A DNA stretch of 64,000 bases from an uncultured Acidobacteriota bacterium (GTDB lineage Bacteria; Acidobacteriota; Vicinamibacteria; Vicinamibacterales; UBA2999), in assembly GCA_963772065.1 (NCBI GenBank), contig CAVYVZ010000007.1, positions 212,249 to 276,248 of the forward strand. Reading direction: 5' to 3'. The notes beneath the pieces were generated by a model. It was not told the origin of the DNA, did not search any database, and was given only the letters and a program-made list of their open reading frames with translations. The number at the start of each line of letters is the position of its first letter. Position 1 is the first letter of the stretch. A program made the position numbers and the translations under genes. Below, one piece after another: positions 7,565-57,627 of the stretch.

Positions 7565-7668
7565 GACTCGTAGTCCGTAGTCCGTGGTCCGTCAGATCGC
7601 GAAGAACGAAGGACAAGTGATTTGACGAACTACGGTCTACGGACTACGGACAACGGGTACGAGTGTCC
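7565..7668. repeat. Periodic-stem palindrome, unit GTAGTCC (left arm 7569-7593, right arm 7625-7651, outer pairing to 7668)
   Basis: Left arm is cgtagtccgtagtccgtggtccgtc. The reverse complement of the right arm is gtccgtagtccgtagaccgtagttcgtc. Thirteen consecutive matches are followed by scattered mismatches. The right arm encodes the last codons and the stop of the minus-strand gene 7630..8025. Confidence 0.85.
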
Positions 7669-13880: not shown

Positions 13881-15279
13881 CTATTTGGCGGCTGTGCGCT
13901 CGGCGTTCGTCCCTTCCTGGCGCTGGTCCAGCCCATACGGGTCGTCGAAGTAGGTCACCGAGCCATCTTCCTCGACCCATGCGGTCCAGTAGCCGATATG
14001 GACGGGAATCGGTTTTCTCAGCTTCACAGCCTGCTCGTGCTTGCTGTTCATGGCCACGCGTATGCGCTCAGGCGTCCACTGCGCCTTGTCCTGCAGCACG
14101 TACTCCGCGAGCGCAACGGGGTTCTCTATGCGAATGCAGCCGTGGCTGAACGTCCGCTTCTCCTTGTTGAAGAGCGAATCGGTTGGCGTGTCATGGAGGT
14201 ACACGTTGAAGTGGTTGGGGAAGATGAATTTGACGAGCCCCAGGGCGTTCTCCTCTCCGGGCGCCTGACGGAAGCGGAGTCCTTCTGTTGTGTCGACGTC
14301 ACTCCAGTCCACGCCCGACGCGTCGAGAATCTCACCCGAGGTATCGACGACCTCGATGTTGTTCCGCGACAGATAGTCGGGATCGTCCACGAGCCTGGGG
14401 AGCGTCTCCTCGCGAAGAATCGATTCGGGGATGTTCCAGTACGGACTGAAGACGATGTACGTCATCTCGTCGCTGAAGAGCGGCGTCGGCGTGTCGGTAG
14501 CACCCACGATCACGCGCATGGCGAGTGCCGGCCTGCCCCCGTCGATGACCTGCATCGCATAGTTCGGCACGTTGATCAGCACGTACCGATCGCCGAGCTC
14601 ACGCGGCGCCCAGCGCCAGCGCTCGAGGTTCATCGAGATTTTTGCGATGTCGAGACTCTCGCCCGCTCCCTTGCGCGCCCGTGCAAGCGCGGCCTGCAGC
14701 CCCTTGTACCTGAGGATGCGACGGGGCGATCGCGTCGAGCGTCTCCCGTACTTTGTTGCCTTTGAGCGCGTCGCGAAGATGCTGGAGCAGGTCCGCCCTC
14801 TTCGGCGATGGGAGCCAGTTGCGGTCGACCTCACGCGGCGACGATCGCCATCCAAGCAGATCGGCGGCGTGCGTGAGGAACGCATAGGTGAGCCGCAGAT
14901 CGGTTTCTGGAATCACATCGGGGTCGAACGAGGCGCCGAACCACGCGCGTTCATCGGCCTTCGCGAGCGCGGCCGCCAGTGCGTCATATCCATAGCCGGC
15001 CGGTTCGAGCCCGTGCACCTCGGCATCACGAATCGCCCCAAGGAGCGACTCGAGCTGCGGTGTTGGATCGTCGCCCTCAATCCACGCCGGCACGTACTGA
15101 CGCTCGGCATAGAACTTCTGCTCGAGCGCCCACAGGCGCCTGCCGGCCGCATCGCGATGAACCCACCGTGGAACGGACGACGCCGATTTCTTCAGGGCAC
15201 CCGCGAACTGTTGGCTGTCCTTCTCCCCGCACGCAATCGACACAACCAGGGCCAGCGCAACTGCAAGGGTCCGTTTCAC
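13881..15279 (-). CDS. L,D-transpeptidase (YcbB/YkuD type); frame break near 14709
   Basis: ORF 14599..15279 is the N-terminal half (lipoprotein-like MKRTLAVALALVVSIAC). ORF 13881..14885 is the C-terminal half, with the YkuD catalytic SHGCIR. Removing one G from cagGtac restores ..APSHPQYKGLQAALA.. Confidence 0.85.
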
Positions 15280-15338
15280 GCGAAGAGGTAGTGCAAGCTG
15301 AATACCGCGTCTTGTTATCTGTTTGCGAAGGAGGCGCG

Positions 15339-15440
15339 ATGGAAGAGAGGAACCGCAGTCAGTCGGGGCGCTCGACGGATCGTGACGAGGGCATCCCCGA
15401 GTCCGGCCGCCTTGACGACGACCAGATGAGCGAGCGCTAG
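15339..15440 (+). CDS. Possible 33-aa highly charged micro-ORF
   Basis: ATG at 15339 is preceded by AAGGAGG, 4 nt upstream. Product is MEERNRSQSGRSTDRDEGIPESGRLDDDQMSER. Its stop overlaps the stop of the convergent 72-aa gene (CTAG). There is no homology support. Confidence 0.25.
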   Translation: MEERNRSQSGRSTDRDEGIPESGRLDDDQMSER

Positions 15441-15655
15441 GCGCACTTGCGGAGGTGACGCATCGTCTGCTTCACCTCCCAGCCCGCGGCAAGTGTGTAC
15501 ACCACTGCGTTGGTCCTGAGATGGCGCTCGCGGCGGAAGCACCAGGCGGCGATGTTGTAAGCGGCCATCACCACGGCGATCGCACAGGCGGCTCCGTGCA
15601 CGCCACCTTTGACGACCTCCTGGTTTCCGCTGTGGCAAAACTGTTCGACCGTCAA
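15437..15655 (-). CDS. 72-aa predicted membrane protein, unknown family
   Basis: ORF track. TTG start is preceded by GGAGG, 5 nt upstream. Hydrophobic segment GGVHGAACAIAVVMAAYNIAAWCF. Third codon positions are GC-rich. Confidence 0.55.
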   Translation of the reverse strand: MTVEQFCHSGNQEVVKGGVHGAACAIAVVMAAYNIAAWCFRRERHLRTNAVVYTLAAGWEVKQTMRHLRKCA

Positions 15656-15730
15656 GCAGCCCTCCTGGGCACGGGCGAGCAGAGCAAGAGCAAATGAAAT
15701 GCCACAGCGCTATGGTGCGAGAACGGGCAA

Positions 15731-16517
15731 CTATTGGTTCTTTGGCAGGTAATAGCGCTCGAGCCAGCGACTGAGACCGTCCAAACCCGGAAACAGCGTT
15801 CGCTCGCTGATGTTCGCCTGGTCGAGCTTGTCGCGGACCTCCCACTTCAACTCCGCAGGAACCACGACGCGCCGGAATAGCTTCGGATGTCCTTCCAGCC
15901 AGTGATCCAGTCGCGCGGACGCCGTGGGCATGAGTGAGAAGAGGGCGAACTGGTTCAGGATTCGCGCGTCCAGCGACGGCGGCTCGATGAAGATCACGAA
16001 GGGATCGCGGCCGAGCGCGTCGAAGGAGCGAAGCGACGGAAACTCGCTGAGCATCTCCACCGTGAAGGTGTCGGAGTGCTCCTCCTCGAGGATCGTCTTC
16101 AGCCGCGGCGGCAGCAGACGGTTCGCCTCGACGAAGTTTACGCACCAGACGACGCCGTCGCCACGGAAGTCTCCGGGGCTCTCCGTGGCAAAGTGGAGCG
16201 CGACAAACGGCGAGTAGGTCCAGTCGACGAGACGAGTCGGCAGGCCGTGATGCTGACCGAGCGCGAGCCAGTGCCAGATCGAGTCGACGCGGTGCCACGG
16301 TTTGCGCGTACTTGCGGAAGTTGCGCACGAGCGAGAGCTCGAGCTTGCCCAGATCGATCCGGCCGGCCGCCAGCCGGATCAGACTGTTGGAGAGATCGTG
16401 ATCGAAGAGGGACAGCCCTCGAAAGGCGAACGGCGAACGGAAGCGGCCGAGGTCAGGGCTCCATGAATCCGCAAAGAGCTGCTCGATCAGTTCGGTCCAG
16501 GTCCGGGGGCGCTCCAC
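15731..16517 (-). CDS. FRG-domain protein; frame break near 16298-16304
   Basis: The N-terminus comes from ORF 15315..16517 (MERPRTWTELIEQLF..FRGLS..). My own translation of the other phase gives KPWHRVDSIWHWLALGQHHGLPTRLVDWTYSPFVALHFA, the FRG core. This continues into ORF 15731..16060. Confidence 0.8.
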
Positions 16518-16533
16518 GGGTCAATTCTAGGCT

Positions 16534-16714
16534 GTAGGCGGTTGGCGGTAGGCGGTAGTTGGCGGTAGGCGGTAGGTTGCCGGTAGGCGGTAGGTGCCGG
16601 TAGGCGGTAGGTGCCGGTAGGCGGTAGGTGCCGGTAGGCGGTAGTTGCCGGTAGGCGGTAGTTGCCGGCAGGCGGTAGGTTCGTTCGTCCGACGGCCTAC
16701 CGCCTACCGCCTAC
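16534..16714. repeat. Eight tandem copies of a 17-18 nt unit (GCCGGTAGGCGGTAGGT) followed by a complementary arm (cctaccgcctaccgcctac, 16696-16714)
   Basis: Read directly from the sequence. There are eight full units plus a partial one. The units are built from the heptamers GGTAGGC and GGTAGKT. The right arm overlaps the stop codon of the permease gene (16711). The element lies upstream of the FRG gene. Confidence 0.9.
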
Positions 16715-19203
16715 TCGTAGCGCAATGCCAGCATCGGGTCCACGCGCGTCGCGCGCCGCGCAGGCACGTAGCCGGCCAGCATGGCGACGCCGCTCAGCAA
16801 CGTCGACGCGAGGACGAACGTCGCCGGATCCGTGGGCGACAGCCCGTACAACTGCGACTCGACGAAGCGGCTGAGGCCGATGGCCACTGGCAGGCCGATC
16901 ACGATACCGACCGAGAGCATCACGGCGACCTCACGCAGCACCATCCACAGCACGGAGCCGCGCGCGGCACCGAGGGCCATGCGAATGCCAATCTCGCGCG
17001 TGCGGCGCGAGACGGTGTACGACATCACACCGTAGAGCCCGACGGCGGCCAGCACGGTGGCCAGCCCGCCGAACAGCATCGACAACGCCGCAACCAGCCG
17101 CTCGATGAACAGCGACTCGTCCACCTGCGCTTCCATCGTCTTCATGTTGAAGATTGGCAGGTTCGGGTCGAGGCGCTGAGCGACCTGTCGCGCGGATGCC
17201 GGCACGCCGCCGGCGTCGGGGTGCGATCGGACGTAGAACGTCATCTGATCGAGCGCTTCTTCCTGCATGTACGGCACGTACACGAACCGCGGGATCTCGT
17301 CGCGCATCGTGGTGAACTTCGAGTCGCGAACGACGCCGACCACCTCGATCGTGTTGTCGTTGTCGTCGCGTCCGAAGCCAAACCTGCGGCCGATCGGGTT
17401 CTGAGTTCCCCAGAAATACTTCGCCATCGTCTCATTGATGATCGCGACGCGCGGTGCGCCGAGGGCATCGGTCTCGCGGAACTCGCGTCCGAGCACGAGC
17501 GGCATCCCCAGCGTCGAGAAGTAACCGGGCGCCACGGCGTTGAAGGTCGGGTTCATGTCCTCGCCTTCCTTGCGAGTGTATCCCTGCACCTGCACGGTCG
17601 AACGCCATTCCGAGTCGGCCATCGCGGGTAGGACGGCCGCGGATGCCGCGGTGACGCCGGGCAGCGCGGCGAGCTGATCGTGGAGCTGGCGGAACAATGC
17701 GGCGCTCCGCTCGCGCGCGTACCCGCTCAACGCCGGATCCACGGAGAACTGCAGCAGGTCCTCGGCCACGAACCCCGGGTTGAGGCTGCGAAGGTTGTAC
17801 AGGCTTCGCGTGAAGAGGCCCGCGCCCGCGAGGAGCAGCACCGACAACGCCACCTGCGCGACGACGAGCCCTTTGCGGAAGCGGGCCTGCCCGCCGGCGA
17901 CGGCGCCCGCACCTTCCTTCAACGCCCCCGTCAGCGACGGCTTGGTCGCCTGGAATGCGGGCGCAAGGCCGAACAGCGTGGCCGTGATCGCGGAAATCGC
18001 AATCGCAAAGAGCACGACACGTAGATCGGGATCCGACGAGAGGTTCTGCACCGCGCGATCGAACGGGAGCGTGTCGATCAAGACGCTGGTCGTCCACCAG
18101 GCGAACAGCACGCCGACGATCGCACCGCCGAGCGCGAGCACGAAGCTCTCGGTGAGCCGCGTGCGCACGACGCGCCAGCGGCCGGCGCCGAGCGCCAGCC
18201 GGATCGCCACTTCCTTCTGCTGCCCCGCCGCTCGCGCGAGCAGCAGGTTGGCGACGTTCGCGCAGGCAATCAGCAGGACGAGACCCACCATCGCCATCAG
18301 CACGACGAGCGGTGTCGAGAACTCCGTGCGCAGGTCCGAGCGTCCCTGATGGCCGGGAAGGACGAGCAGGGTCTTGGCGAGAAAGCGCTTGCGGATGTTC
18401 TCGGGCATGCTCGCGCGGAGCGTCTTCGCGTCCTCCTGCAGCTGCTGGCGGTAGACGACGTTCATCGCCGCGCCTGCCTGCTCCATCGTCACGCCGGGCC
18501 TTCGGCGCCCCATGATGGTGACCCACCGGCTGCGCCACGTGTCGAGGTCGTTCCAGGTGGGCGTGAGCTGCGCCTTCATCATGATCGGCACGAAGAGATC
18601 CGCCGGCGAACCGGCGTCGAGGCCGCTGAAGCCGCGCGCGGCGACGCCGACGACCGTCATCGGATGATTGTTGATGCGGATCTCCTGGTTGAGGACGTTC
18701 GTCTGGCCGCCAAAGCGCCGCTGCCAGTAGCCATGGCTGAGCACCACGACCGGGTGACCGCTCGGCGTGCGGTCGTCTTCCGCGCCGAGCGTGCGGCCGA
18801 CGACAGATCCAACGCCGAGGACATTGAAGTAGTGGCCCGTGACGAGCTCGACGAACACACGCTCCGAGCGCGTGCCGGTGGTGAGCGTCGCGCTCGTGTC
18901 GTAGCGCGCGAGCATCCCGGTCATCACGTCACGCGACCCGTGCTCGAGGCCGCGAAACATCGGCACGGAGAACGTCATGTTGTTGTTGGTCCGCCCCGAG
19001 AACGGTCCGGGGCCGTCGAAGAGCACCAGCTCCTCCGGCGCGCGGACGGGGAGGGTCCGCAACAGCACTTGATCCATCAACGAGAAAATCGCGGTGTTGG
19101 CGCCAATGCCGAGGCCGAGCGTGAGGATGATGATCACGGAGAACGCTGGCGCGCGGCGAAGCGACCGGAGGGCGAATCGAAAGTCCTGACGCAGCTGGTC
19201 CAT
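16711..19203 (-). CDS. ADOP-family duplicated ABC permease (two MacB-like periplasmic core / FtsX halves)
   Basis: ORF track, 830 aa. N-terminus is MDQLRQDFRFALRSLRRAPAFSVIIILTLGLGIGANTAIFS. A second FtsX-type half sits at the C-terminus. Confidence 0.9.
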   Translation of the reverse strand: MDQLRQDFRFALRSLRRAPAFSVIIILTLGLGIGANTAIFSLMDQVLLRTLPVRAPEELVLFDGPGPFSGRTNNNMTFSVPMFRGLEHGSRDVMTGMLARYDTSATLTTGTRSERVFVELVTGHYFNVLGVGSVVGRTLGAEDDRTPSGHPVVVLSHGYWQRRFGGQTNVLNQEIRINNHPMTVVGVAARGFSGLDAGSPADLFVPIMMKAQLTPTWNDLDTWRSRWVTIMGRRRPGVTMEQAGAAMNVVYRQQLQEDAKTLRASMPENIRKRFLAKTLLVLPGHQGRSDLRTEFSTPLVVLMAMVGLVLLIACANVANLLLARAAGQQKEVAIRLALGAGRWRVVRTRLTESFVLALGGAIVGVLFAWWTTSVLIDTLPFDRAVQNLSSDPDLRVVLFAIAISAITATLFGLAPAFQATKPSLTGALKEGAGAVAGGQARFRKGLVVAQVALSVLLLAGAGLFTRSLYNLRSLNPGFVAEDLLQFSVDPALSGYARERSAALFRQLHDQLAALPGVTAASAAVLPAMADSEWRSTVQVQGYTRKEGEDMNPTFNAVAPGYFSTLGMPLVLGREFRETDALGAPRVAIINETMAKYFWGTQNPIGRRFGFGRDDNDNTIEVVGVVRDSKFTTMRDEIPRFVYVPYMQEEALDQMTFYVRSHPDAGGVPASARQVAQRLDPNLPIFNMKTMEAQVDESLFIERLVAALSMLFGGLATVLAAVGLYGVMSYTVSRRTREIGIRMALGAARGSVLWMVLREVAVMLSVGIVIGLPVAIGLSRFVESQLYGLSPTDPATFVLASTLLSGVAMLAGYVPARRATRVDPMLALRYE

Positions 19204-20667: not shown

Positions 20668-20710
20668 TTCTTCCTTTTCCTTTTTCCTTTTTCCTTTTTC
20701 CTTTTCCTTG
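20668..20710 (-). repeat. Homopurine (mRNA-sense) tract made of GGAAAA(A) repeats, filling the rlmI-DUF3052 intercistronic spacer
   Basis: Minus-strand reading is TAA-caaggaaaaggaaaaaggaaaaaggaaaaaggaaaaggaagaacgagc-ATG. There is no complementary arm nearby. Confidence 0.85.
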
Positions 20711-21883: not shown

Positions 21884-21925
21884 GGCTTAAGGCGTTAAGG
21901 CCTTACGGCCTGAAGACCTTAAGCC
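21884..21925. repeat. Hairpin ggcttaaggcgttaaggcc-ttac-ggcctgaagaccttaagcc (unit CTTAAGG) in the rlmI/glyA divergent region
   Basis: Read directly. The arms are 19 nt with about 3 mismatches. It shares GGCTTAAGG with the element at 34147..34177. Confidence 0.7.
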
Positions 21926-23227: not shown

Positions 23228-23334
23228 CGGTTCGTCGGTTCGCGGGTTCGACGGTTCGCGGGTTCCACGGTTCGTGAGATCGCTAGTGGGTCGGCGAACT
23301 GACGAACCCACGAACTGACGAACCCACGAACCGC
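23227..23334. repeat. Periodic-stem palindrome, 8-nt unit (C/G)GGTTCG(N), filling the whole convergent intergenic spacer
   Basis: The left arm has six units (cggttcgt cggttcgc gggttcga cggttcgc gggttcca cggttcgt). The right arm has five complementary units (cgaactga cgaaccca cgaactga cgaaccca cgaaccgc). The outermost pairing TAGCGGTTCG/CGAACCGCTA includes both stop codons. Confidence 0.9.
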
Positions 23335-28097: not shown

Positions 28098-28245
28098 CTC
28101 GTGACTTCGCCTGTCACGAGCCACGAAGCCACGAAGATGCGTTCGACTGCGGCCTGCGAAGCGAGCCGCCCTCGGCGGCTCAGTCGAACGCATTCTGACC
28201 GCAATGATTCTTCGTGCCCTTCGTGATCTTCGTGGCCTTCGTGGT
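28098..28245. repeat. Multi-branched structured element with CACGAAG / CTTCGTG periodic arms
   Basis: Nested pairings read directly from the sequence: ctcgtgac/gtcacgag (28098-28120); ccacgaagccacgaag (28121-28136) against four cttcgtg units (28210-28244); atgcgttcgact/agtcgaacgcat (a perfect 12 bp); and gagccgcc/ggcggctc (a perfect 8 bp). Confidence 0.8.
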
Positions 28246-35416: not shown

Positions 35417-35481
35417 TTTTGATTTTTGGCTTTTGATTTTTGATTTCAACCAAATCAAAAATCAAAGATCAGAAATCAAAA
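35417..35481. repeat. AT-rich periodic-stem hairpin, unit TTTTGAT (30-nt arms, 26/30 paired, loop caacc)
   Basis: Left arm is ttttgatttttggcttttgatttttgattt. Right arm is aaatcaaaaatcaaagatcagaaatcaaaa. The right arm ends at the base before the yggU ATG (35482). Only 6 G/C occur in the 30-nt left arm. Confidence 0.9.
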
Positions 35482-35748
35482 ATGGACAGCGTGATTCTGA
35501 CCATTCGCGTGATCCCGCGGGCCGGTCGATCCGGACCCGCGGGCATCCGCGACCATGCCTTCCTGATTCGCCTCAACGCCCCGCCTGTCGAAGGCGCCGC
35601 CAACGCCGAGTTGATCGACGTCCTGGCGGACCTGCTCGACGTGCCGAAGCGCAACGTCACGATCGTCAGCGGCGAACGCAGCCGCCTGAAGCGCGTGCGA
35701 ATAATCGGCATTACGCTCGAACGCGCGCGCGCGATTCTCCATTCCTGA
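35482..35748 (+). CDS. yggU: DUF167 (YggU) family protein
   Basis: The internal ATG gives MDSVILTIRVIPRAGRSG..V.APPVEGAANAELIDVLADLL. The ORF-track start at 35440 lies inside the hairpin. Confidence 0.8.
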   Translation: MDSVILTIRVIPRAGRSGPAGIRDHAFLIRLNAPPVEGAANAELIDVLADLLDVPKRNVTIVSGERSRLKRVRIIGITLERARAILHS

Positions 35749-35817
35749 ACCACGAAAACACGAAAATCACGAAAACATCACAAACAGATTCGTGTCTTTC
35801 GTGCGTTTCGTGGTTTC
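35747..35817. repeat. Periodic-stem hairpin, unit CACGAAAA / TTTCGTG
   Basis: Left arm is gaaccacgaaaacacgaaaatcacgaaaac. Right arm is ttcgtgtctttcgtgcgtttcgtggtttc. It begins within the yggU stop codon. Confidence 0.8.
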
Positions 35818-51913: not shown

Positions 51914-51919
51914 GAGCGA

Positions 51920-51942
51920 CTACGGACTGCGGACTACGGTAA
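51920..51942. repeat. Solo copy of the CTACGG(A/T)CT(G/A)CGGACTACGG arm seen at 7630-7652
   Basis: ctacggactgcggactacgg is 18/20 identical to ctacggtctacggactacgg at 7630. I found no complementary arm nearby. It supplies the last codons and the stop (..TVVRSP-stop) of the RES gene. Confidence 0.6.
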
Positions 51943-52588: not shown

Positions 52589-52598
52589 CGATGGCTCC

Positions 52599-52639
52599 AC
52601 GTTCCGGGTTCCAGGTTCCGGGTTCTTGTTCTGGAACGG
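52599..52639. repeat. Heptamer array gttccgg gttccag gttccgg gttcttg plus complementary ctggaac, between antitoxin and toxin
   Basis: Read directly. It lies between the antitoxin stop (52641) and the preferred toxin start (52588). Confidence 0.8.
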
Positions 52640-56771: not shown

Positions 56772-57533
56772 GTGATGAATCCTTCCGACCTTCGACACCT
56801 GCTGGATCGCGTGCGCGATCGCGACGTCGATCCTGCGGCAGCGGCCGATCGCATCCTCGACGCCCTGCGCTCGGCGCCCTACGAGGACCTCGGCTTCGCT
56901 CGCGTCGACCACCACCGCGAAATCCGGCAGGGGTTCCCCGAAGTGATCCTCGGCTTAGGCAAAACTCCGGCCCAGATCGCCGCCATCGCCGAACGCATCG
57001 CCGTGCGCGGCCGTCCGCTGCTGGTCACGCGCGTTCAACCTGATGTGTTCGACGCCGTCCGAGCAGTCATTCCTCAAGCGACGTACCACCTCGAGGCGCG
57101 TGCCATCACGTTGAGCCAAGGGGACATCCCGCGCGGTAACGGCACAGTCCTGATCGTCAGCGCGGGGACCTCCGACATCCCTGTCGCAGAAGAAGCGGTC
57201 GTCACGGCCGAGCTGATGGGGAATACGATCGACCGTCTCTACGACGTGGGTGTGGCGGGCCTCCACCGTCTGCTTCGCGAACAGTCGCGCCTCCAAAGTG
57301 CACGAGTGGTAATCGTCGTCGCAGGAATGGAAGGCGCGCTACCCAGCGTCGTTGCGGGGCTGATCGCGGTTCCGGTCATCGCCGTTCCTACGAGCATCGG
57401 TTACGGCGCGAGCTTCGGCGGGATTGCCGCGCTGCTTGGAATGCTCAACAGCTGCGCCAACGGCGTCTCGGTGGTGAACATCGACAACGGCTTCGGGGCC
57501 GGCTGCATCGCCAGCCTCATCAATCATTTGTAG
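56772..57533 (+). CDS. larB: LarB-like (AIR carboxylase family) nickel-pincer cofactor biosynthesis protein
   Basis: ORF track, 253 aa (the ATG at 56775 is more likely than the GTG at 56772). Sequence ..ARVDHHREIRQGFPEVI..VSAGTSDIPVAEEA..VVAGMEGALPSVVAG.. Confidence 0.8.
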   Translation: MMNPSDLRHLLDRVRDRDVDPAAAADRILDALRSAPYEDLGFARVDHHREIRQGFPEVILGLGKTPAQIAAIAERIAVRGRPLLVTRVQPDVFDAVRAVIPQATYHLEARAITLSQGDIPRGNGTVLIVSAGTSDIPVAEEAVVTAELMGNTIDRLYDVGVAGLHRLLREQSRLQSARVVIVVAGMEGALPSVVAGLIAVPVIAVPTSIGYGASFGGIAALLGMLNSCANGVSVVNIDNGFGAGCIASLINHL

Positions 57534-57627
57534 GTTCGTGGGTTCGTGGGTTCGTAGGTTCTGGGTTCCTCGGTTTTTCGGCCGAACCAACGAACTCGAA
57601 CCGAGGAACCGACGAACTGACGAACCG
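57531..57627. repeat. Periodic-stem palindrome, unit GGGTTCGT, with a perfect inner 12-bp stem (ggttcctcggtt/aaccgaggaacc)
   Basis: Left side is taggttcgtgggttcgtgggttcgtaggttctgggttcctcggtt. Right side is aaccgaggaaccgacgaactgacgaaccgcc. It begins with the larB stop TAG and shares GCGGTTCGT..CAGTTCGT with the element at 23227..23334. Confidence 0.85.

Follow-up and report, generated by a model that had tools for sequence, protein, structure and literature searches.

The tandem array between the permease gene and the FRG-domain gene of the source genome (G000, a soil acidobacterium) is probably a gene-less hairpin of the TAGGCGG family that was acquired at the stop/start junction of the two genes and whose distal arm was later amplified by 17-nt duplications. 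The locus is a member of this family, with the fixed polarity of the family and its adjacency to a stop codon; its junction falls into a series of filled, empty and decayed relatives, and the 17-mers are a local amplification. Positions given without a contig or locus prefix are those of the window (the whole 64-kb stretch of DNA that was analysed), and the features are collected in Table 1.

Table 1. Coordinates of the array, its flanking genes and related repeats; window positions unless a contig is named.
Feature	Position	Strand	Details	Source or comparison
MacB/FtsX-type (ADOP-like) permease gene	16711..19203	-	830 aa	Pfam MacB_PCD 2.1e-39, FtsX 1.8e-27
Short arm, stop-proximal	16695..16714		+ strand GCCTACC x2.9; permease transcript UAGGCGG x2.9	TRF, sequence
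Loop/spacer ttcgttcgtccgacg	16680..16694		15 nt	without homology to the loop of the closest relative, L139
17-nt unit block	16579..16679		six units (GCCGGTAGGCGGTAGGT and variants; 7+7+3)	TRF, sequence
Basal heptamers, distal arm	16528..16578		TAGGCTG TAGGCGG TTGGCGG TAGGCGG ...; units 1-2	
Tail, array to FRG start	16518..16527		10 nt	common to L139 (..CAGCCTAcAATTGcCCC GTG)
FRG-domain gene	15734..16517	-	about 261 aa if intact; GTG start at 16517	
Further inverted pairs in the window	7569-7656, 23228-23332, 28115-28244, 35417-35483, 35751-35812, 57533-57627			
Single arrays in the window	20671-20709, 21886-21923, 51918-51939, 52596-52625			
Arms around the C1 PF05635 gene	C1:91219-91293, C1:91827-91902		G-arm, C-arm	
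Units bracketing Y1_Tnp genes			GTTCAGAGTACCC / CAGGTACTCTGAA and TCAGAGTCAGG / CTCTGAGCCGA	

TRF reads positions 16541-16678 as 8.1 copies of a 17-nt period (95% matches, score 225, the top score in the window); the eight units of 17-18 nt counted in the preliminary description were exact, and an underlying period-7 reading takes in 16528-16679 as TAGGCGG x19.6. The short complementary arm matches its own heptamer at 100%. As had also been described, units 3-5 are identical (GCCGGTAGGCGGTAGGT, three consecutive copies starting at 16579, 16596 and 16613) and so are units 6-7 (GCCGGTAGGCGGTAGTT, two consecutive copies starting at 16630 and 16647), while unit 8 (GCCGGCAGGCGGTAGGT) has one change. 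The 17-mer is composed of two heptamers plus three bases and is a derived higher-order unit of the heptamer TAGGCGG; the exact 17-mer GCCGGTAGGCGGTAGGT is confined to the array and does not occur elsewhere in the genome. Higher-order periods of 14, 22 and 28 nt are found at other places in G000, and periods of 16, 21 and 23 nt around the cassettes of relatives. The recent local expansion proposed earlier is plausible because adjacent units are identical and because no more than 3-4 heptamers make up the homologous (distal) arm in L139.

The complement CCTACCGCCTACCGCCTAC lies at 16696-16714 and overlaps the permease stop codon, in agreement with the preliminary description, CTA at 16711-16713 being the TAG of the gene. 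The permease transcript ends ...ALRYE and continues UAG GCGG UAGGCGG UAGG; as it reads UAGGCGG from the stop onward, the stop codon is the first triplet of the first heptamer. The short arm in fact offers a UAG to each of the three reading frames, at offsets 0, 7 and 14. Pairing of this arm in several registers had been predicted, and duplexfold gives at least ten, at -36 to -43 kcal/mol, with the strongest duplexes formed by the distal pure-heptamer units. Folding of both strands in silico had been proposed as a check and gave the same picture: in the MFE structure of the transcript (-86.8 kcal/mol, z=-2.9) the short arm is paired with the distal pure-heptamer units and the 17-mer block is looped out, and the + DNA strand folds similarly. 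The basal heptamers, which share homology with the 3' arm of the hairpin in L139, are the best pairing partner for the short arm. The RNA stem of 14-20 bp predicted right after the permease stop could act as a 3' stem-loop or as an RNase III substrate, and an RNase III gene is present in G000. No Shine-Dalgarno-like motif was seen in the tail at 16518..16527. The loop at 16680-16694 holds about 1.5 units of another family (GGTTCGT), and at C11:56913-57023 in G000 a TAGGCGG hairpin carries GATTTGT-type repeats of another family inside its loop; with foreign units inside two loops, it follows that nested or compound elements occur.

The layout of the locus is the layout of the TAGGCGG family. 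There are 506 period-7 arrays of at least three copies in G000, far above the numbers for neighbouring periods, and they fall into 233 unit classes, the commonest being ACCGCCT/TAGGCGG with 36 loci when a locus is defined by at least 12 nt of TAGGCGG repeat. The design of this family is a G-rich arm that starts at the stop codon of the upstream gene and supplies it, a short loop and a complementary C-rich arm. Among the inverted pairs of all unit classes (n=107) the 5' arm has more G than C in 92 and more C than G in 11 (p=4e-17); as inverted repeats read alike on both strands, the polarity belongs to the elements themselves and is no strand effect. In the TAGGCGG loci that have both arms the G-rich arm comes first in every case, and by our own count, which used a crude gene model, the arm that abuts a gene end (within 30 nt) is the sense-G-rich one in 24 instances and the C-rich one in a single instance. 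A stop codon within the 5' arm is a feature of the TAGGCGG, TAGTCCG and TGATTTT families; as a general rule for all families this was discarded, GTTCGGG, AGGGGCG and GGTCAAA being without one. Within this setting the locus stands out by its scale: at 152 nt no heptamer-class array of the genome is longer, and no inverted pair is more asymmetric (7.6:1, the next being 4.0:1). From one TAGGCGG locus to the next the loop sequences differ and are unrelated, a poor fit to simple copy-and-paste of a whole element. In the window itself TRF detected at least six other inverted pairs with units of 7-8 nt, besides several single arrays.

The distribution of the repeat among relatives is patchy. With up to one mismatch allowed (TAGGCGG)3 has 61 matches in G000, and there is no match in the same-genus genome G001; among 40 relatives the matches number 289 in G031, 27 in G015, 10 in G005, 5 in G022 and 2 in G030. 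(TAGGCGG)4 is found in many phyla (members of the Gemmatimonadota, Planctomycetota, Chloroflexota and Verrucomicrobiota) and in many Streptomyces, and Neolewinella antarctica DSM 105096 has ten (TAGGCGG)4 loci.

Relatives of the junction were retrieved with the C-terminal part of FRG as query, and four of the 80 metagenome loci obtained keep the permease-FRG order. An exact search of metagenome contigs for a 31-nt stretch of the junction gave no match, and a contig search with the permease as query found nothing. The ...LRYE* end of the permease is common to the orthologues in L139-L142 and G001. In the FRG tree the six syntenic loci fall together (93/97 support), the group (G000, L139, G001) at 89/88 being sister to (L142, (L140, L141)); in the outgroups FRG is preceded by a different gene and the spacers measure -4 to 45 nt. 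In two of these outgroups (L150 and L152) the short spacer 5' of FRG holds 9-mer arrays of AGGCGGGAA.

The spacer between the two genes, 193 nt in G000, takes a different form in each of the other five loci. In L139, the closest relative (with 93% identity in FRG across the 185 aa of the query), it is 87 nt long and forms a symmetric TAGGCGG hairpin, with (TAGGCGG)x4.6 running from the stop (TAG GCGG, then (TAGGCGG)x3.6), a 24-nt unrelated loop, CCGACCG CCGACCG CCCACAG and finally CCTACAATTGCCCC before the GTG; its tail and last heptamers align with ...CCAACCGCCTACAGCCTAGAATTGACCC GTG of G000. In G001 the spacer is 118 nt and degenerate, with GTAGGCG...CGCCTAC at its edges and scattered variant units. 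In L140 there is no spacer at all (0 nt, ...RYE TGA GTG...). The 237 nt of L141 (L141:2030-2266) contain two copies of a different hairpin and a CGATTGGC x3.8 array with its complement, and the 168 nt of L142 are without heptamers. The 17-nt units are absent from the L139, G001 and L140 junctions, and the 17-nt unit block is a lineage-specific amplification. A filled/empty series for one permease-FRG junction is new here.

This filled, empty and decayed series argues that the distal arm in G000 was amplified locally in 17-nt steps. The 0-nt junction of L140 likewise suggests that FRG was ancestrally co-transcribed and translationally coupled with the permease and that the hairpin is an insertion in a former operon junction, so that the element would now separate two genes that were once translationally coupled; the reading of the empty site as ancestral rather than derived rests on one contig (L140) and a moderately supported tree. 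In the course of events that we favour, the ancestor that G000, L139 and G001 have in common would have gained a small symmetric TAGGCGG hairpin at the junction. The hairpin would then have decayed in G001, and in G000 amplification in 17-nt steps would have added about 100 nt to the part of the distal arm next to the loop, taking the arm from some 3-4 heptamers to about 150 nt. Such growth could have come about by repeated tandem duplication of the 17-nt block through slipped-strand mispairing or unequal recombination. The amplification is probably the neutral runaway of a slippage-prone repeat and no selected switch. No target duplication is visible at the hairpin borders. A second filled/empty comparison with G001 was sought for the hairpin at C10:128739-128841, whose two flanks lie on separate contigs there.

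The array had been placed directly upstream of the FRG gene. It ends about 10 nt before the GTG at 16517. The 400-aa ORF at 15315-16517 is an out-of-frame read-through and for this reason has no Pfam match. The FRG domain (PF08867) is matched in Pfam by both gene pieces and by the orthologues. When the intact 263-aa orthologue from G001 was used in tblastn, residues 1-78 mapped to 16517-16290 and residues 79-263, in a different frame, to 16288-15734, the gene being split by one extra base near 16289-16290, within the FRG domain. The gene is intact in 18 of 18 relatives examined, at 260-300 aa, with orthologues of 262-269 aa among them. The L,D-transpeptidase gene at 13881-15279 (- strand) also appears to be split, into a Scaffold ORF (14599-15279) and a YkuD ORF (13881-14885) that overlap in different frames, and this second frame break within 3 kb hints at assembly indels. 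The FRG frame break is either a real pseudogene or an assembly indel error, and as the neighbouring gene is split as well the frameshift may be the latter. With both genes split the assembly appears indel-prone, and fine details of the units could therefore be errors too. It is nevertheless quite unlikely that assembly of a long-read metagenome bin created the copy number, or some of the array, as an artefact. The two frame-split neighbours would fit this, as would a completeness of 85% in only 12 contigs (G000 comprises 5.48 Mb at 66% GC), but L139, an independent metagenome contig, has a homologous hairpin between the same flanking sequences and G001 has a decayed copy, and the unit variants lie in ordered blocks with no random scatter.

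No sigma-70-like promoter consensus was found near the locus, no Rfam covariance-model match at E<=1 was obtained in 15000-18000, and a search of 16000-17200 for terminator-like sites (a GC-rich stem plus a U-tract) returned none, so that an intrinsic terminator was rejected. A CRISPR was dismissed as there are no spacers, and a coding repeat as the period is not divisible by 3 and TAG interrupts each frame of the + strand. An iteron reading was considered and rejected.

The preliminary description had suggested that the array might act as a contingency locus, in which FRG would be switched or tuned as 17-nt units come and go, by way of read-through or altered promoter spacing. Identical adjacent units do indicate recent duplication, the array ends 10 nt from the FRG start and the copy numbers of the arms vary among relatives. 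These points are outweighed by the lack of a promoter-like site, by the 0-nt junction of L140 with the ancestral co-transcription and translational coupling of FRG that it implies, by the presence of more than 100 similar hairpins behind unrelated genes, by the broken frame of FRG in the present assembly and by the imperfect identity of the units (95%); phase variation was moreover judged unlikely for such repeats (Rehm et al., PMC4692102). We consider this reading highly improbable. We think equally little of the chance that two-tetrad G-quadruplexes on the G-rich + strand, which is the template for both genes, hinder or modulate transcription or replication. G3-type heptamer repeats form G-quadruplexes in vitro (PMC4692102). 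GGTAGGCGGTAGG fits the G2N1-3 four-tract motif six times in the array, but the potential of the array is low: the G4Hunter maximum is 0.96 and the mean about 0.7 (25-nt window), below the threshold of 1.2 in common use, and there are GG runs only and no G3 runs. G2N1-7 four-tract motifs are in any case commonplace (376 in the 64 kb), many families of G000 have the same architecture without G-tracts (e.g. ATTTTTG and GGTCAAA), and the G-rich strand here is the template and not the displaced strand.

A possible consequence of the asymmetry, though one that we regard as rather unlikely, is that the unpaired surplus of the C-rich arm serves as a Rho loading (rut) site and brings about Rho-dependent termination or polarity between permease and FRG. 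Rho prefers long, C-rich, G-poor and unstructured RNA. In the family at large the G-rich arm, which is transcribed first, would normally pair with the C-rich arm, but at this locus some 110-130 nt would be left single-stranded: as there are only about 19 nt of G-rich arm to pair with, most of the distal arm should be unpaired in the transcript. The 17-nt unit block is C-rich and G-poor in the transcript, and as the surplus arm makes the transcript extremely so it may load Rho by accident. In the sense RNA of the array C makes up 49% and G 18% (C/G 2.8), its maximum C/G over 100 nt (3.5) is reached by none of 5112 windows on both strands of the 64 kb, and the MFE fold leaves the 17-mer block unpaired except for 3-bp hairpins. 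Two Rho homologues are encoded in the genome, the G-rich arm comes first in 92 of 103 skewed pairs, as expected under selection against exposed C-rich RNA, and the FRG gene downstream is frame-broken here only. On the other hand the argument is one from composition, the FRG frameshift may be an assembly error and the polarity has other possible explanations.

In G000 all 11 matches to PF05635 (the 23S rRNA IVS protein) lie between inverted tandem arrays. Each match has a unit to itself, and eight of the units also rank among the 17 gene-less families that are commonest. One of the genes, coding for a four-helix-bundle protein (- strand, 113.7 bits), is bracketed by TAGGCGG arms at C1:91219-91902. 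Its closest homologue, in G015 (51% identity), has TAGCCGG arms and the next, in G005 (42%), AGTAGGC arms, and the PF05635 genes of relatives likewise lie between inverted tandem arrays. In L112, a Planctomycetaceae MAG, a PF05635 gene of 32% identity is enclosed by TAGGCGG arms at 2249-2276 and 2723-2743. Strict dependence of the gene-less elements on a 'master gene' of PF05635 type with the same unit is weakened by G031, where there are 289 matches to (TAGGCGG)3 and only two to PF05635, with CAGGCTC and AATGCAC arms; from this pattern a PF05635 gene with the same unit appears unnecessary for an abundant TAGGCGG family. Two of the Y1_Tnp (IS200/RAYT-like) genes in G000, at C10:290165-291082 and C7:201549-202433, lie between inverted arrays whose tandem units measure 11-13 nt.

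It has to be asked whether the heptamer hairpins grew in place from chance seeds at all or were made by an active, unit-specific process at breaks or stop/start junctions, for example one in which the G-rich strand is added from a template to each 3' end of a break before the ends are joined. If this were so it would account for the G-rich-5' polarity on both strands, the unrelated loops, the missing target duplications and the nested elements; the junction would then reflect one event with later re-expansion, and different families would have struck it independently in sister lineages. We regard such a process as unlikely.

The element belongs to a known but unexplained kind, the dispersed heptamer repeats near gene ends. 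Intergenic heptameric repeats have been described in Xanthomonas (GGGAATC) and Nostoc (GGGGA(C/T)T) (Rehm et al. 2015, PMC4692102), where they lie on the sense strand within 50 bp of stop codons, vary in length among close relatives and were judged unlikely to be phase variable, and heptanucleotide elements of four and five units are known from Geobacter metallireducens (PMC2700814). The repeats described here resemble them in being dispersed, tandem arrays of 7-nt units, enriched in noncoding DNA no more than about 50 bp past stop codons on the sense strand, in part inverted and capable of forming stem-loops, with a length and sequence that vary among close relatives. They differ in that dozens of unrelated unit families are held together in G000 and in that the locus has a secondary 17-nt period and an arm asymmetry of 7.6:1. 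Unlike the Xanthomonas and Nostoc units, TAGGCGG has GG runs only, and the G-quadruplex rationale of PMC4692102 is therefore inapplicable. In Coxiella the stems of the 23S rRNA IVS are cut by RNase III and the number of heptamers differs between strains (PMC4990558). The locus shares with the ORF-bearing IVS/PF05635 cassettes a long stem of inverted arms built from tandem heptamers, but there is no gene between its arms, only a 15-nt loop, and unlike the rRNA IVS it sits in an mRNA spacer.

REP, BIME and REPIN elements with their RAYT (Y1) transposases (PMC3733652) are likewise short extragenic palindromes found behind genes in many copies. One REP superfamily has GTAG as its head motif, and this tetramer is also contained in the unit of the locus. 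The locus differs from REP in that its arms are 7-nt arrays of variable copy number with unrelated loops and not a single palindrome of 20-40 bp. A REP/RAYT origin was rejected, as none of the three Y1_Tnp genes in G000 has TAGGCGG flanks and the loops are not shared. With the phase-variable simple sequence repeats of Haemophilus and Neisseria the locus has in common a tandem repeat near a gene start and slippage as the likely mutational mechanism; unlike them it is built from an imperfect 17-nt unit, lies between a stop and a start codon where no promoter was found, and belongs to a genome-wide class.

Taken alone the locus is an ordinary though extreme member of its family and no switch for the neighbouring gene. 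The series of junctions, which includes an empty site, a small hairpin, a decayed one, an over-expanded one and elements of other families, shows that over genus-level time such hairpins come, change and disappear at exact stop/start junctions. The family-wide order in which the G-rich arm comes first would see to it that C-rich arms are paired once they are made, a rule that this locus appears to break. Together the G-first polarity and the exposed C-rich tract may offer ideas, such as avoidance of Rho or processing by RNase III, for the unexplained excess of heptamer repeats in bacteria.
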